Shown in pieces: positions 1-5,486 of a stretch of 32,000 nucleotides of DNA. Position numbers and translations under genes: made by a program. The first letter of the stretch is position 1. Every line of letters begins with the position of its first letter. The stretch spans positions 61,452 to 93,451 of the forward strand of contig NJBF01000010.1 of the NCBI GenBank assembly GCA_003144275.1, written 5' to 3'. This DNA is from Candidatus Heimdallarchaeota archaeon B3_Heim (GTDB taxonomy: Archaea; Asgardarchaeota; Heimdallarchaeia; Hodarchaeales; Hodarchaeaceae). Under the pieces are notes generated by a model. That model was not told the DNA's origin, ran no database searches, and worked only from the letters and a program-made list of their open reading frames with translations.

Positions 1-1
1 A

Positions 2-973
2 GGATCATATTCACAATTAAAAACTGCTTATTGTATCGTCAATGGAATATTGACAAGAAAGAGCGTACCTCCTGGCTTATATCGGATTGGGAATCCACGA
101 AGAAATTCACCAGTTCTGGTAACTGCAAATTACTATTGGACGGTAGATTCTGTATTTAAACTTCTTCACAAGGAGACTATTGATTGCTTTCTATTAATAG
201 TAGATTCAAATGGAATAAATGTGTGGTGTGCTGCAGGGGGAGGCCATTTTACACATACACAAATATTAGACGCAATTAGGTTATTTGATGTCAAAGAAAT
301 GATTGATCATTCTACCATAATATTACCTCAATTATCAGCAACAGGAGTAGATCGAAAGGAATTGTCTAAAGCAGGTTGGAAACCAGTTTTTGGCCCCGTA
401 GATATCAAAAATGTTAATACATTTCTAGAATCATTCACAAAAAAATCTAAAACAGCGATGGTTGAGTTTAACTTAGCATTTAGAACTCTAATGGGAATAC
501 AACATGCGTTCTTTATTAGTTGTGTTCTTTTCCTCCCTTTGTTACTGATTCTTGGTATTTTAGCGGCTATAGAGATTCCATTGACATCTTTTTGGTTTTC
601 TGTTGTATTTCAGCTGTTTATCCTCGGTTGGATTATTAATATGCTATTTATTTGGGGTTACCCAATTTTTAACTTCACATCTTCTTTCTTTAAAAAGGGC
701 CTTTCAGTAGCAATAATCAACTCAATTGTGGTTTTATTTTATCTGATAACTCAGATAAAGATCATATCTTTGTATAGCTTAATTTTCTGGGTCGCTTTGG
801 TTACTGTAGTGAGTTTATTCATAATTCTAGATCTTGCTGGGAACACCCCTTTTACTAATCACTTAGATGTTGAAAGCGATCTGACTCTGTTCATGGTACC
901 GGCATTGATTCTTTGCCTTATTGCGATATTTATTCCGTTGGTTAGTTCAGATATTAAACACTTATTATTTTGA
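2..973 (+). CDS. hgcA: HgcA-like corrinoid protein (CdhD/CFeSP-like corrinoid domain plus C-terminal transmembrane domain); probably 5'-truncated by the window edge
   Basis: Motifs VPPGLY, SPVLVTANY, GINVWCAAGGG (cap helix; Cys codon TGT 227-229), IILPQLSATG, W(K)PVFGPV, then about 5 hydrophobic helices and a GNTPFT motif like the HgcA GSTxFTS. The frame is open from position 2 (GSYSQLKTAYCIVNGI-) into the ORF-track TTG at 50, so the true start is probably upstream of the window. Confidence 0.8.
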   Translation, partial: GSYSQLKTAYCIVNGILTRKSVPPGLYRIGNPRRNSPVLVTANYYWTVDSVFKLLHKETIDCFLLIVDSNGINVWCAAGGGHFTHTQILDAIRLFDVKEMIDHSTIILPQLSATGVDRKELSKAGWKPVFGPVDIKNVNTFLESFTKKSKTAMVEFNLAFRTLMGIQHAFFISCVLFLPLLLILGILAAIEIPLTSFWFSVVFQLFILGWIINMLFIWGYPIFNFTSSFFKKGLSVAIINSIVVLFYLITQIKIISLYSLIFWVALVTVVSLFIILDLAGNTPFTNHLDVESDLTLFMVPALILCLIAIFIPLVSSDIKHLLF

Positions 974-985
974 AATGTGATAGAG

Positions 986-1252
986 ATGGTAGCTGTTATA
1001 TTTATTGAGAGGTGTAATGGATGTGCTTGGTGTCTAGATGTCTGTCCACATCAAATAATAATTTTAACTAATGATAAAAAGGCTGAGATCGTTAATGAAG
1101 AACGATGTATAGAATGTGGGGCATGTGCATTACAATGTCCAAGAGATGCAATACTAGCTCATCCACTTGGATGTGGTTGTGTTTCTAGTGTGGTACGGAA
1201 GAAGGTTCGTAAATTGCTACATCTACCTGAGAAGTCCAAGCAGTGCTGTTAG
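986..1252 (+). CDS. hgcB: HgcB-like 2x[4Fe-4S] ferredoxin
   Basis: CNGCAWCLDVCP and CIECGACALQCP cluster motifs, an extra GCGC, and a terminal CC. It lies 12 bp after the hgcA-like stop. ATG 986 is preferred over the ORF-track GTG 977. Confidence 0.8.
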   Translation: MVAVIFIERCNGCAWCLDVCPHQIIILTNDKKAEIVNEERCIECGACALQCPRDAILAHPLGCGCVSSVVRKKVRKLLHLPEKSKQCC

Positions 1253-1327: not shown

Positions 1328-1864
1328 ATGCTGCGTAGCGAATTTCCTTTCAAAATTTCAGTAGTAAGTTCCCCTGATAAACTAGCAGAGTCTATGTTGC
1401 AAAACTACAGAGAATTAAAACCTAGCGATGATACATCGCCTCCTAGTTATGAGATAAAGATGGATGTCAGCGGCATTTCCGTTCGTCTCCATATTAAGCA
1501 AATCCAGTTAGGAAACAAAATTCCGACCTCTCGTATGAAAGAATTTCAAGGATCCATAGGAATGATATATATTTTTGAAAATAAAGATTTAACTTTGTTC
1601 AATGAAGTTAAAACTGATTATTATACCTTCGAACATCTTTATAAGACTGTGAATATACAACCTGTATTTCTAGGGGTGGGAAATAAACAAGATTCAAACG
1701 TAATGAAACACATCCACCAGACACTAAAAGAAATGAATCATAAGCTAGATGAGCTTGAACAGAACAGAAATAATTCTTTCACTCAACTTATTCGATCTGT
1801 TATCATTAAGTCTAAATCTTTTCAATCTACAACTCAAGGATCGTGTGATATTAATTTAGAATAA
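1328..1864 (+). CDS. Degenerate Rab/Ras-like small GTPase (pseudo-GTPase)
   Basis: Small-GTPase scaffold: FKISVV (beta1), DVSGISVRLHI (beta2/3), FQGSIGMIYIFE (beta4), VFLGVGNKQD (G4 intact), NNSFTQLIRSVI (alpha5). The P-loop and DxxG motifs are absent. Confidence 0.6.
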   Translation: MLRSEFPFKISVVSSPDKLAESMLQNYRELKPSDDTSPPSYEIKMDVSGISVRLHIKQIQLGNKIPTSRMKEFQGSIGMIYIFENKDLTLFNEVKTDYYTFEHLYKTVNIQPVFLGVGNKQDSNVMKHIHQTLKEMNHKLDELEQNRNNSFTQLIRSVIIKSKSFQSTTQGSCDINLE

Positions 1865-1899: not shown

Positions 1900-3039
1900 T
1901 CATAAATCTGATAAAAGCCTTCCCCAGACTCTTAATAATTGATTAATTTGCTCTTCCCGTATAAGTTCTGAATCTTCTTCATCATCACCAAAGGAAAACT
2001 TCATTGTTTCTGTTGTTTCACCAATATAAAGATCGAGTAATGCCTCAGCTGAGAATAATCTGAGTTTCGCCTCACTATGTTGTGCAATCTCTTCAATGAT
2101 TAGATCTTTGAGCCCAATGGCGATATCCTTTATTACGGAATAACCTGTTTCAAAGAACTGTTTCTGAAATTTTCGTGTTAGAAGAAGATCAAGCATGAAA
2201 GATTTATCGATTGCCATAAAAAACTCGTTACCATAGATAAAACGGAGTTTCCTTATACTAGAAGTACCAAATACAAGAAATCGAGGCTTAGAGTTAAATA
2301 ATGTTGAAAGTAATCCAATTATTGCCGCAAAATATCCTCCAAGAAGTACATCATCCTCAACATCATAAGAAAAGGGAATATCTCCCCCATCTTGATGAGA
2401 GATTAAACACCAACTCGTTGGAGAAATATAATCAGCTTTTTCTGCCTTTTTTCTTAAATAATAATGAAATAACAAACATTCCTCTAAGGATAGAACTCCA
2501 AAATTTGATCCTGATCTTCCAACAATTACTTCAACTTGGTTATTTTCAATGTAAGATGGATTGATATCAAGGATGATATTTTGGAGCTGCTTGGTTATTT
2601 TTTCTTGATCTTGCTGGTTTGCGTCTTCAATACTCGTGGCATAAAGAATTGATGCTTGACCAACTAGTACAGCGGTCATGATTTCCTTAATATTGAACGG
2701 AATCCCCTCTTTTGCTGAGATTAACATAAGAGTTGTCGCTGGATTACTAATGATGAAATAAAAATGATTATGTAGCGAGACAATAAAAATTTCTGCCGTT
2801 TTTGTTCCTGAGTACTGCGGAAGATCGAAAGTTATACTTGCAATGCCTTCACCAAATAACTCCTCTCCGAATGTGCCAAGACCTTTTAGAAAATCTACAA
2901 CAATTTGTTGAAATTCGTCTCTCGGTTCGCCGAATGTCCACTTTACTTCCTCTCCCTCAACAAAGATTGCCCAGTGTTCATGTTCTGTCATTTGCAATAT
3001 AATCCTTAATTCTGGAAAAGGAGTATCAGGCTTCTCCAA
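1900..3039 (-). CDS. Hypothetical protein with two longin/roadblock-like domains
   Basis: Two beta-beta-alpha-beta-beta-beta-alpha patterns: HWAIFV..VDFLKGLGTFGEELFGEGIASITF..FYFIISN and WCLISHQDGGDIPFSY..VLLGGYFAAIIGLLSTLFNSKPRFLVFG..FFMAID. Fold read by eye. Confidence 0.55.
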   Translation of the reverse strand: MEKPDTPFPELRIILQMTEHEHWAIFVEGEEVKWTFGEPRDEFQQIVVDFLKGLGTFGEELFGEGIASITFDLPQYSGTKTAEIFIVSLHNHFYFIISNPATTLMLISAKEGIPFNIKEIMTAVLVGQASILYATSIEDANQQDQEKITKQLQNIILDINPSYIENNQVEVIVGRSGSNFGVLSLEECLLFHYYLRKKAEKADYISPTSWCLISHQDGGDIPFSYDVEDDVLLGGYFAAIIGLLSTLFNSKPRFLVFGTSSIRKLRFIYGNEFFMAIDKSFMLDLLLTRKFQKQFFETGYSVIKDIAIGLKDLIIEEIAQHSEAKLRLFSAEALLDLYIGETTETMKFSFGDDEEDSELIREEQINQLLRVWGRLLSDL

Positions 3040-3752: not shown

Positions 3753-5486
3753 TCAGGAGTCGTTACTAATCCACCAAAGTTTTTCATAGGGTGATTCTTT
3801 GTAGGTGTTATCGATTACCGAGAATTCCGTACCGATAAACTTCATCATTGTTTTTTTGACTTCGTTGGGATTAAACGTTAAAAGAAGATTTGACTCATAC
3901 AATTTCTTGTATAAAAAAGGATCAAGTTGATTTTGGAGTTGATTATAAGGCAGTGGTTTTCCTTCTGCGATAAGAATATTCTTGACAATATCTATTATCC
4001 ATTCTTCCAACTCTTCGCTTGTAATTGGGCGGTAAATCCTTTTTTCTTCTTTTAATGGCTTTTTGAAGATGAAAAAATAGTCCCCTTGCTGAGAGCCCTC
4101 AGGTTGAAATAAACTTTTAGCCGATGCACGAGCTGGAGGATGATAAACTACTCTTTCAAACAAAAAACCTGTTTGAATTACGGATCGGTATAGGATATTA
4201 CGAATTGACAAACTTGGATTATGGAATGTTACCGTACAGTATTTTTCCCGTTTTAATATTGAATATATTTTGTGAAAAGCCTGTCTGAGAAGCTGCTCGT
4301 AAATTGCAAGGTCTTTGTTCTGTCTGGAATTAGCGATTATTTCATTACGTAAGATATCATCATACCCCTCTAGGATGTTTATCCAGGCCCCCCAAAGGTA
4401 TAATAGTTCCCCATACTGAATGGAATGTCCATATGGAGGATCAGTAATAATAAAATCTACTGAATTTTGAGGAATGAGCTCTAATTGAGTGATGTTGGAA
4501 TTTATTAAGAAAAAACTTGGTAGAGTTGCTTCGTGGAGCTCTTCAATACTGTTTACTTCTTTTATATGTTTTATCTTCAGTTTCAAGTCCTTTTTAGCCC
4601 GATATAATCCTTGCTTTCCCATAACTGCACGTTCGAATAATTGCCAAACATTTGATTCCATATAATGGGGGCAGTACCAATAGCTAGGTTGAATCCAAGA
4701 CGAACTAAAGGGGCGGGATGGCCGCACGGGGGTCATCTTTGAGGCTAAGTGAACCAAACTAGAAAAAGCAAAAAGAAATGATTCTCTAAGGTCGGATTCA
4801 CAGATCTTTTTAATCCGATCAAGTAATTTAGCAAGTGCAATCAGGTTTCTATATGTATAAAGATCATCAATGTTGTCATACCGCTCTTTTTTAAGGAAGG
4901 CTTTCCCACCTGAATAATAAAGAGGGTTTTCAGGAAACCAATAGTTCAAGAGCCCTTTAGAATTAAAAAAACTGTCTATGGAATGATTTTGTATTTCATT
5001 ATACCTATCGCGATCAAATGACTGTACCTTTTCTACTTTTTTTCCGTCTTGAGGACAGACATAACGCCTGTCGAATAACTTTGAATCTTGCCAAGAAAAA
5101 CAGGTTGCAGGTATAATATTTCCACATTTTGGACAATTTGTTGAATAAAGATTCGAAATATCATTTTTTACATCCGCTTCTATAGCTCTAAATTCTTTTA
5201 CTATTCTCATATGTGAGATATAGCGCAATGTGTTTCTCGTGACAAATATTGAAACAGGATTAATGTCAATCCCAATAGCTTTTCTTCCTAAATGCAAGGC
5301 TTCTCCAATAGTAACTCCACTTCCACAAAATGGATCTAAAACGATCTCTCCTGAATCATGAGTGTAGTGTTTGATATATTCTTGTATGAGTCGTTCTTGT
5401 TTTCGTCCAAAAAATTTGTGCATTACATACATTGACGAATGACCTTGAGAGGGAACTACTTTCTCAATAGGTGAAGAATTAGTCAT
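3753..5486 (-). CDS. Amino-group (N6-A/N4-C) DNA methyltransferase with Cys-containing insertion; no partner nuclease in the window
   Basis: HKFFGRK; SAM-binding motif I VLDPFCGSG near the N-terminus; CPKC...CP; catalytic motif IV ITDPPY in the C-terminal half. Confidence 0.88.
   Translation of the reverse strand: MTNSSPIEKVVPSQGHSSMYVMHKFFGRKQERLIQEYIKHYTHDSGEIVLDPFCGSGVTIGEALHLGRKAIGIDINPVSIFVTRNTLRYISHMRIVKEFRAIEADVKNDISNLYSTNCPKCGNIIPATCFSWQDSKLFDRRYVCPQDGKKVEKVQSFDRDRYNEIQNHSIDSFFNSKGLLNYWFPENPLYYSGGKAFLKKERYDNIDDLYTYRNLIALAKLLDRIKKICESDLRESFLFAFSSLVHLASKMTPVRPSRPFSSSWIQPSYWYCPHYMESNVWQLFERAVMGKQGLYRAKKDLKLKIKHIKEVNSIEELHEATLPSFFLINSNITQLELIPQNSVDFIITDPPYGHSIQYGELLYLWGAWINILEGYDDILRNEIIANSRQNKDLAIYEQLLRQAFHKIYSILKREKYCTVTFHNPSLSIRNILYRSVIQTGFLFERVVYHPPARASAKSLFQPEGSQQGDYFFIFKKPLKEEKRIYRPITSEELEEWIIDIVKNILIAEGKPLPYNQLQNQLDPFLYKKLYESNLLLTFNPNEVKKTMMKFIGTEFSVIDNTYKESPYEKLWWISNDS

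Follow-up and report, generated by a model that had tools for sequence, protein, structure and literature searches.

What does an Asgard archaeon do with a membrane-anchored corrinoid protein that resembles one half of a mercury methylase and is followed at once by a ferredoxin resembling the other half? The question is raised by the first lines of a 32,000-nucleotide (nt) stretch of DNA from Candidatus Heimdallarchaeota archaeon B3_Heim (contig NJBF01000010.1), which is the whole stretch analysed here and is called the window. A first-pass annotation, made from the letters alone, described an unfused hgcAB-like pair that was either a mercury methylator missed by standard screens or a related corrinoid methyltransferase acting on another acceptor. 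We found that the locus consists of a methyltransferase::HgcA-like fusion gene (M-A, with M for the methyltransferase and A for the HgcA-like part) and a separate HgcB-like gene (B). Its products probably form a methyl relay in three parts, a member of the CpaM/HgcAB-like paralogue family in which M is fused to A and B is free; we draw this from sequence comparison and from analogy with HgcAB.

In frame 2, the window carries no stop codon from position 2 up to the TGA at 971-973 (open reading frame [ORF] listing), and the translation contains GINVWCAAGGGHF, in which TGT at 227-229 encodes the cap-helix Cys and GGA at 239-241 its last Gly. The left edge of the window, which covers contig positions 61452-93451, cuts this gene. 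Retrieval of the upstream sequence for the true N terminus, as advised in the first-pass annotation, revealed a methyltransferase domain: the frame is open for 691 nt (or 676 nt) further upstream in the contig, where the start lies, and the whole fusion gene occupies contig positions 60760-62424 on the + strand. Its product has 554 amino acids (aa), or 549 aa if Met6 is the start, as in the closest homologues. The 554 codons form a single unbroken frame that holds a Methyltransf_25 domain, a PF03599 domain and five transmembrane (TM) helices. The stop at 971-973 parts A from B, with a gap of 3 nt before the ferredoxin ORF, whose start is at 977 or 986, and the separation is kept in all orthologues. 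The PF03599 and ferredoxin family matches in the window are far above chance level. The hgcAB layout proposed at first stands insofar as a corrinoid protein with a TM end is followed by a separate di-cluster ferredoxin, but the locus is not a plain unfused pair, an S-adenosylmethionine (SAM) methyltransferase being fused N-terminally. The suggested Asgard origin was borne out: the nearest record (89% identity) is a metagenome-assembled genome (MAG) of a Candidatus Heimdallarchaeota, and further relatives are Hodarchaeales or Promethearchaeota MAGs. The parts of the locus, with the basis for each, are as follows.

Window 1 to 973, + strand: 3' 973 nt of the M-A fusion gene, residues 232-554 (ORF, translation, domain matches).
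Upstream of the window, + strand: SAM methyltransferase domain, residues about 1-213 (Methyltransf_25, CpaM).
Window 62 to 424, + strand: corrinoid-binding domain of the CdhD/corrinoid iron-sulfur protein (CFeSP) type, residues 252-372 (PF03599, structures).
Window 218 to 241, + strand: cap helix NVWCAAGG, with the presumed cobalt-ligand Cys307 at 227-229 and Gly at 239-241 (sequence).
Window 473 to 943, + strand: membrane domain of five predicted helices (AlphaFold2 model).
Window 977 to 1252, + strand: HgcB-like 2x[4Fe-4S] ferredoxin, 91 aa, or 88 aa from the ATG at 986 (hidden Markov model [HMM], Fer4 families).
Window 1172 to 1180, + strand: GCGC motif (Cys66, Cys68), counterpart of HgcB Cys73 (sequence, alignment to canonical HgcB).
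Window 1244 to 1249, + strand: C-terminal Cys90-Cys91, as HgcB Cys94/Cys95 (sequence, alignments).

Over residues 44-143, the N-terminal domain matches Methyltransf_25 (E 1.9e-17), and there are also matches to several further families of class I SAM methyltransferases. For the N-terminal 235 residues, the best NCBIfam model is NF043040, the class I SAM methyltransferase named CpaM for 'corrinoid protein-associated methyltransferase', which scored 124.4 bits against 47 bits for the next family; residues 2-191 align with model positions 1-191 of 216, and the score is below the cut-off of 180. The SAM motif VLEIGSGTG is intact, and G48, G50, G52 and D69 are invariant in 75 fusion homologues; the three glycines belong to SAM motif I, and D69 is the ribose-binding acid. 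In the structural model, the Rossmann order of strands and helices is seen up to about residue 213, and a fold search with this domain returned generic small-molecule class I methyltransferases as its nearest folds.

For the corrinoid domain, the part encoded in the window matches PF03599 with an E value of 1.5e-16. The CFeSP large-subunit structures 2h9a and 4c1n match the same residues, 252-372, and 4djd is also homologous by sequence search; a sequence search of solved structures gave no solved HgcA structure, only CFeSP and generic methyltransferases. By fold, the best match of the model was the integrative HgcAB model 9a0b_A, and this 2020 model was the only HgcAB entry recovered. Among HMMs, the A part scored 216.1 bits on HgcAB_like NF043039 (cut-off 285; model positions 15-280 covered) and 173.6 bits on HgcA NF040863 (cut-off 275). 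On the CdhE model NF003195, only the C-terminal 126 model positions were matched, with 84.3 bits against a cut-off of 306; with no CdhD/E in the genome, a CFeSP of the CdhD/E type was rejected as the identity of the protein.

AlphaFold2, run with an alignment of 75 sequences, gave a model of the fusion with a mean predicted local distance difference test (pLDDT) score of 92.7 and a predicted template modelling (pTM) score of 0.88. The predicted order is a Rossmann methyltransferase, a short linker, the corrinoid domain with its cap helix at 305-310, and five long helices (residues 389-420, 426-449, 460-482, 488-512 and 518-545), like the five TM helices of the HgcA C-terminal domain. Since a pTM of 0.88 is high for a three-domain protein, the model implies that the three domains pack in a defined manner.

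The cap helix is encoded by AAT GTG TGG TGT GCT GCA GGG GGA. Its Cys and the replacement of Lys by Gly, on which the first-pass annotation had built, are both confirmed in the sequence, and the helix is of the paralogue type. N304, W306 and C307 are invariant in the 75 fusion homologues, and N-(V/I/A)-W-C is kept by all 268 HgcA-family sequences gathered. The difference lies at the end of the motif. Unfused canonical-type proteins mostly end it in GK (NVWCAAGK in 87 of 117, and another ..GK form in a few more), whereas the M-A, A-B and M-A-B forms end it in GG, RG, AG, TG or CG. Across the sequences compared, the Gly is the normal state of the paralogue clade. The HgcA motif N(V/I)WC(A/S)(A/G/S)GK is not matched by NVWCAAGG, in which Asn, Trp and Cys are present and Lys is replaced by Gly. 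The premise that survey motifs require the basic residue holds, since the high-stringency hgcA motifs all end in GK (PMC10087281); as these filters accept only ...GK, M-A fusion genes are excluded by design.

The ferredoxin ORF begins with GTG and has 91 codons. Fer4 families match it, and two CxxCxxCxxxCP motifs supply the cluster ligands, C13/16/19/23 and C44/47/50/54. C66 and C68 follow 12-14 residues past the second cluster motif, and C90-C91 terminate the protein. All cysteines of the HgcB type are thus kept, and the protein aligns column for column with canonical HgcB, with GCGC in place of its GVGC. Mutagenesis of HgcB has shown that Cys73, about 12 residues past the second cluster motif, is indispensable and that one or both of Cys94/95 must be present (PMC7305189). 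The earlier description of this protein as a canonical-looking HgcB is therefore upheld: the Cys73 equivalent and the terminal CC are present, and the alignment is to bona fide HgcB. The best family is NF040864 HgcB, with 66 bits (cut-off 99) and an alignment that reaches the last residue of the model; on NF043039 the ferredoxin scored 52.4 bits over model positions 299-349. The same ferredoxin gene lies downstream of every orthologue.

Complex prediction supported binding of this ferredoxin to the HgcA-like protein. The predicted A-B complex scored 0.72, versus 0.00 for the best of 3 controls; of 80 solved complexes 58 attain that mark, as do 2 of 110 mismatched pairs, a calibration that holds only roughly for the custom alignments used. 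The runs shared at least 65% of contacts, with a partner pLDDT of at least 69. In the predicted complex, the cluster loops touch the conserved P340-Q-L-x-A-x-G346 loop of the corrinoid domain, and the tail helix of the ferredoxin (62-77) lies on residues 514-527 in the TM4-TM5 region, as in the published HgcAB model (PMC7305189). Because the 2020 HgcAB model is in the structure library, the score may partly reflect likeness to that model.

How widespread is this arrangement? A word-indexed protein search gave about 60 clusters (90% identity) of 510-600-aa proteins with the M-A architecture, and an exhaustive search gave 62 representative clusters at E <= 1e-30. They are mostly from Asgard MAGs (Promethearchaeota, Hodarchaeales, Heimdall-, Odin-, Hermod- and Thorarchaeota), with a few bacterial ones, e.g., Anaerolineae, and their annotation in every case goes no further than 'methyltransferase domain-containing protein' or UbiE-like. 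Of 201 sampled Asgard genomes, at least 40 have an M-A fusion that is full-length and free of stops. In the GTDB order of the source genome, 19 of 24 genomes gave a match, and three subtypes could be distinguished.

Subtype 1 (the source locus): M-A fusion; cap helix NVWCAAGG; ferredoxin of 87-92 aa with P-x-GC-G/R-C, a basic helix and a terminal C or CC.
Subtype 2: M-A fusion; cap helix N(V/I)WC(A/S)ARG; ferredoxin called at 111-176 aa, with uncertain starts, that shares the cysteine features of subtype 1.
Subtype 3: a gene each for M, A and B, lying side by side; cap helix mostly NVWCSAAG (NVWCAATG in L029); ferredoxin of 72 aa without a cysteine tail.

The GCGC motif is accordingly kept in the ferredoxins of subtypes 1 and 2 and missing from subtype 3. 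An M-A fusion followed by B was found at the source locus, in 13 loci examined from the same order (L011-L023, L030) and in three further deep-branching lineages; subtype 3 shows that the same order also has M, A and B as separate genes, and M-A-B triple fusions of 590-640 aa were also recovered. In two bacterial cases, the gene ahead of an A-B fusion encodes a 212-aa methyltransferase, a free CpaM, and overlaps or abuts the fusion gene. Both of these bacterial operons have an ArsR-type (HTH_5) regulator upstream, and a MerC-family gene follows one of them. A radical SAM gene precedes M-A-B triple fusions in two independent contigs, and one triple fusion adjoins MerB, a CsoR-type repressor and a pyridine-nucleotide-disulfide oxidoreductase. 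The canonical operon of Desulfosporosinus reads HTH_5-hgcA-hgcB, with no methyltransferase gene. M, A and B are linked as split, pairwise fused and triply fused forms, and the sequence comparison therefore bears the classic signature of a functional unit.

Two further observations were made on these relatives. A bacterial A-B subclade (e.g., P0064-P0077) ends in a conserved NNFRxGxCSCPTC, after which an acidic tail with CC is common; at the position that equals GCGC these proteins thus have a cysteine-rich tail of another kind, and their loci carry ArsR-type regulators and MerC. In several Asgard genomes, e.g., G048:C74, G052:C9, G105:C53, G137:C681 and G190:C23, fusion matches of about 590-650 aa hold 1-3 in-frame stops (TAA, TAG or TGA). 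Broken copies, recoding or reading on into the neighboring ferredoxin gene may account for them; selenoproteins have been mentioned as a possibility for some hgcA/hgcB homologues (PMC11588087).

The phylogenetic placement of the A part was then inferred from the corrinoid and membrane domains (321 columns, 109 rows) by maximum likelihood (ML) under LG+C20 with posterior mean site frequencies (PMSF), with CdhE as the root. The canonical HgcA clade comprised 49 rows, including two proteins that NCBI names HgcA (support 100/99). A paralogue clade of 57 rows (93/81) took in every A-B and M-A-B form and almost every M-A form, and within it the source protein shared a 47-row set (99/97) with the whole of the A-B and M-A-B fusions. 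A further M-A lineage and subtype 2 branched below this set, with P0044 and subtype 2 basal in the paralogue clade, and one M-A protein (P0158) was sister to the canonical clade (95/71). By sequence, the position of the source protein outside the canonical HgcA clade is well supported, and its nesting among the fused paralogues is the best estimate. An approximately unbiased (AU) test did not reject a tree in which subtype 1 was held with the canonical clade (delta lnL 14.4, p 0.30). The phylogeny proposed in the first-pass annotation thus placed the A part with the fused paralogues, which is the phylogenetic half of the outcome named there as refuting mercury methylation, but the AU test allows a sister relation to canonical HgcA. 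In a tree of the corrinoid domain only (148 columns, 156 rows, Asgard CdhE root), the base of the family was unresolved. The main tree agrees with that of Lin et al. (2023), in which Asgard sequences fell in a 'fused HgcAB' subtree and the first 327 alignment columns were trimmed as poorly aligned (PMC10083202). We suspect that those columns held the methyltransferase domains described here.

The source genome bears on the origin of the methyl group. The assembly is 3.95 Mb long with 36% G+C in 103 contigs, and has an estimated completeness of 94% and an estimated contamination of 3.9%. A search of this 94% complete genome found neither CdhD/E nor a second hgcA, the source locus being its sole PF03599 domain; CdhE-grade matches were seen in 0 of 7 sampled genomes of the same class, against 34 of 61 sampled phylum-wide. 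At least seven B12-binding domains exceed the Pfam cut-off, which indicates that cobamides are in use. CobS (cobalamin synthase) gave no match in the 94% complete genome, which suggests that the organism salvages cobamides rather than completing their synthesis. A search for MerB gave no match in the source genome, but it matched no control genome either and is uninformative. Among the listed public sequencing runs there was no RNA run, and none held at least half of the sampled words (best share 0.27).

These results led us to propose the following relay. The two [4Fe-4S] clusters of the ferredoxin, whose gene would be translationally coupled to the M-A gene, would bring the cobamide to the Co(I) state. 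Having bound SAM, the fused class I domain would then methylate Co(I), giving CH3-Co(III) held by the thiolate of Cys307 in the cap helix. Finally, a thiophilic electrophile, offered by the ferredoxin's cysteine tail (GCGC ... CC) at the face of the membrane, would receive the methyl group in the form of a carbanion or radical equivalent. For the reduction and SAM-loading steps, this is the most economical reading of the architecture, the conservation and the analogy with HgcAB. It is favored because the genome, having no CdhD/E and no other PF03599 domain, appears to lack a CFeSP/Wood-Ljungdahl methyl source, while the protein has a SAM-binding domain built in. The direction of methyl flow is inferred from purified HgcAB, in which the HgcB clusters give Co(I), SAM yields Cys-ligated CH3-Co(III) and the methyl group passes to Hg (Zheng et al., PMC11588087); no methyltransferase fusion is mentioned in that work.

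As for the acceptor, our best guess is a soft metal(loid), as indicated by the ArsR, MerC and MerB genes beside relatives together with the conserved cysteine tail. Hg(II) is possible but is not favored, given the clade to which the protein belongs and the negative tests on fused forms. The radical SAM neighbors and the tail-less subtypes indicate organic substrates in at least part of the clade.

Several points weigh against the proposed relay. No metal-related gene adjoins the Asgard source locus, which is flanked by Tag, arginase, LDH/MDH and unknowns, and the radical SAM genes beside some relatives fit a biosynthetic role as well as a metal role. Members of the paralogue clade that were tested in vivo, all of them fused A-B forms, made no methylmercury (MeHg). 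The NCBIfam scores for CpaM, HgcAB-like, HgcB and HgcA are all below the curated cut-offs, so that the locus counts as a divergent relative and falls short of certified membership. A tie to the canonical clade is compatible with the AU test. Moreover, purified canonical HgcAB uses SAM without a separate methyltransferase, and the fused domain might not load cobalt.

Among the alternatives, an organic acceptor fares best, although we consider it rather unlikely for this locus. The module would then be a biosynthetic methyltransferase for a peptide, a lipid or another membrane-associated metabolite, in which the corrinoid methylates a nucleophile-poor carbon or heteroatom and the ferredoxin serves for reductive activation only. 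The radical SAM genes ahead of triple fusions on the two independent contigs would fit such a role, as would the absence of the cysteine tail from subtype 3 ferredoxins and many A-B fusions; a lipophilic substrate would suit the membrane domain, and the nearest folds of the methyltransferase domain act on small molecules. Subtype 1, however, keeps its GCGC ... CC tail, for which organic methylation offers no obvious role, biosynthetic genes are not conserved beside the Asgard loci, and the genes that adjoin other relatives include ArsR, MerC or MerB.

That the locus encodes a genuine mercury methylase, equivalent to HgcAB, with SAM loading hard-wired by the fusion and missed by filters that require Lys, seems quite unlikely to us. 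No residue of known importance in HgcB is missing from its ferredoxin, the cap helix retains its Cys ligand, Trp and Asn, the predicted A-B interface resembles the HgcAB model, the AU test (p 0.30) is compatible with a sister relation to canonical HgcA, and SAM is the proven donor of HgcAB (PMC11588087). The best tree nevertheless puts the protein with the fused paralogues and outside the canonical clade, and its score on the HgcA model is 173.6 bits against the 275 required. The earlier premise that the tested fused paralogues failed to methylate Hg holds (PMC4646819; PMC10087281), although Podar et al. caution that the negative result for Pyrococcus furiosus does not prove the fused protein incapable (PMC4646819). 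Furthermore, subtype 3 of the same order has lost the cysteine tail, and the core function of the clade is thus seemingly independent of it. Of the two options offered in the first-pass annotation, a missed methylator or a corrinoid methyltransferase with another acceptor, the second is the better supported.

An incidental fusion, with domains that act independently, or an assembly or annotation artefact, or a decaying relic, is very improbable: the source genome is indeed a MAG in 103 contigs with some estimated contamination (3.9%), but the fusion is unbroken in about 60 clusters from independent assemblies and in at least 40 of the 201 Asgard genomes, its catalytic motifs are invariant in the 75 homologues, the genes stay adjacent in split forms and the model packs the domains together.

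Apart from the two-gene module, nothing around the locus is conserved beyond close relatives (at least 67% identity), and the neighboring genes were therefore rejected as parts of the system. Upstream lie Tag (PF03352), an arginase-family gene, LDH/MDH and DUF4037; downstream are a 178-aa ORF without a family, a 379-aa ORF, a glyoxalase-fold protein and a DNA methylase. Tag glycosylase I (E 8e-83) is encoded on the same strand 112 nt upstream of the M-A gene, 804-1385 nt before window position 1, and is retained in the loci of the four closest relatives (L012-L015, at least 67% identity). That a gene for alkylation repair should stand beside a module for methyl transfer is suggestive, though it is conserved only at shallow depth. 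The remaining features of note in the window are these.

Window 1328 to 1864, + strand: ORF of 178 aa with no Pfam family.
Window 1900 to 3039, - strand: convergent ORF of 379 aa with a marginal LanC-like match (23.8 bits against a cut-off of 23.2).
Window 3753 to 5486, - strand: protein of 577 aa with N6/N4 DNA methylase (PF01555) and RMKL-like methyltransferase signatures, which from its sequence looks like a stand-alone DNA methyltransferase.

Elsewhere among the sampled genomes, two Asgard genomes (L033, L037) have CdhE-type ORFs of about 600 aa with two tandem C-terminal corrinoid domains, e.g., 350-471 and 476-598, which could be CdhE fused to a second PF03599 domain.

What, then, is new? 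The CpaM/HgcAB-like module itself is already catalogued by NCBIfam (NF043039/NF043040), and 'fused HgcAB' has been in the literature since 2015 (Podar et al.); our literature search found no paper on the methyltransferase association or on the M-A fusion. The new elements, of which that search likewise yielded no published description, are the M-A fusion with a free, fully HgcB-like ferredoxin, its frequency among Asgard archaea, and the link to the SAM finding of 2024, by which Zheng et al. overturned the methyl-tetrahydrofolate paradigm: purified HgcAB is methylated by SAM (PMC11588087). The M-A fusion with its split and fused relatives provides independent comparative-genomic evidence, of the 'Rosetta stone' kind, for SAM loading of the family, and it offers a simpler, self-contained protein for study of the step from SAM to corrinoid. 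It also exposes a blind spot in surveys, as generic annotation and failure at the cap-helix filter hide a module that is common in Asgard genomes. If the acceptor is a metal(loid), the module bears on trace-element cycling in Asgard habitats. A bolder idea, which we hold to be distinctly improbable, is that a dedicated SAM-loading methyltransferase is ancestral to the whole HgcA family and that Asgard subtype 1 is an active methylase of Hg or a soft metal(loid); the ancestral part of it is suggested by P0044, subtype 2 and P0158, layouts of M-A with an HgcB-like ferredoxin that branch close to the base of the paralogue clade on one side and of the canonical clade on the other. If true, and given that such fusions are carried by at least 40 of the 201 sampled Asgard genomes, methylated metal(loid)s would have an overlooked origin in Asgard archaea, one that the design of current hgcA screens leaves out. 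The source locus is an interesting variant of a catalogued sister family rather than a proven hidden mercury methylator.

Comparison with known systems places the locus nearest to the CpaM plus HgcAB-like module (NF043040/NF043039). Both have the same three components, M, a corrinoid domain with a Cys cap helix and five TM helices, and a 2x[4Fe-4S] ferredoxin; the two models are the best-scoring HMMs for the M and A parts, the cap helix is without Lys in both, and they share one ML clade. They differ in the fusion, since the named HgcAB-like family has A fused to B with M free, while the source locus has M fused to A with B free. The source locus also scores below the cut-offs of this module and has no adjacent ArsR or TetR regulator. 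The CpaM-type partner of the named family is present in it as the in-frame fusion. The HgcB cysteine set is complete in its free ferredoxin but not in many A-B fusions. 'Fused HgcAB' was reportedly also treated by Gilmour et al. in 2018.

HgcA/HgcB, a system said to go back to Parks in 2013 and for which Cooper gave a model in 2020, shares with the source locus the Cys-on cap-helix corrinoid domain with its five-TM domain, a separate downstream dicluster ferredoxin with the Cys73 equivalent and terminal CC, and the same kind of predicted A-B interface. SAM would be the common methyl donor, although for the source locus this is only proposed. Unlike HgcA/HgcB, the source locus has an N-terminal SAM methyltransferase, a cap motif in GG rather than GK, scores below the cut-offs and a place in a non-canonical clade; the canonical operon examined (Desulfosporosinus) carries no methyltransferase gene. 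The large CFeSP subunit AcsC/CdhE has a homologous PF03599 domain (PDB 2h9a, 4c1n, 4djd), but its N-terminal [4Fe-4S] and TIM-barrel parts and its CdhD partner have no counterpart at the source locus, where a Cys ligand and a membrane domain are found instead.

Reactivation of MetH likewise proceeds by methyl transfer from SAM to cobalamin. With cobalamin-dependent radical SAM enzymes such as TsrM only the concept is shared, namely that SAM methylates cob(I)alamin and the methyl group is then passed on. The folds of TsrM and MetH are unrelated to the source protein, which joins a class I Rossmann SAM binder to a CFeSP-type corrinoid domain, and both clusters of its ferredoxin partner have four Cys ligands, so that neither is a radical SAM cluster, unlike TsrM. 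The relay from SAM to cobalamin in TsrM was cited by Zheng et al. in their account of HgcAB (PMC11588087).

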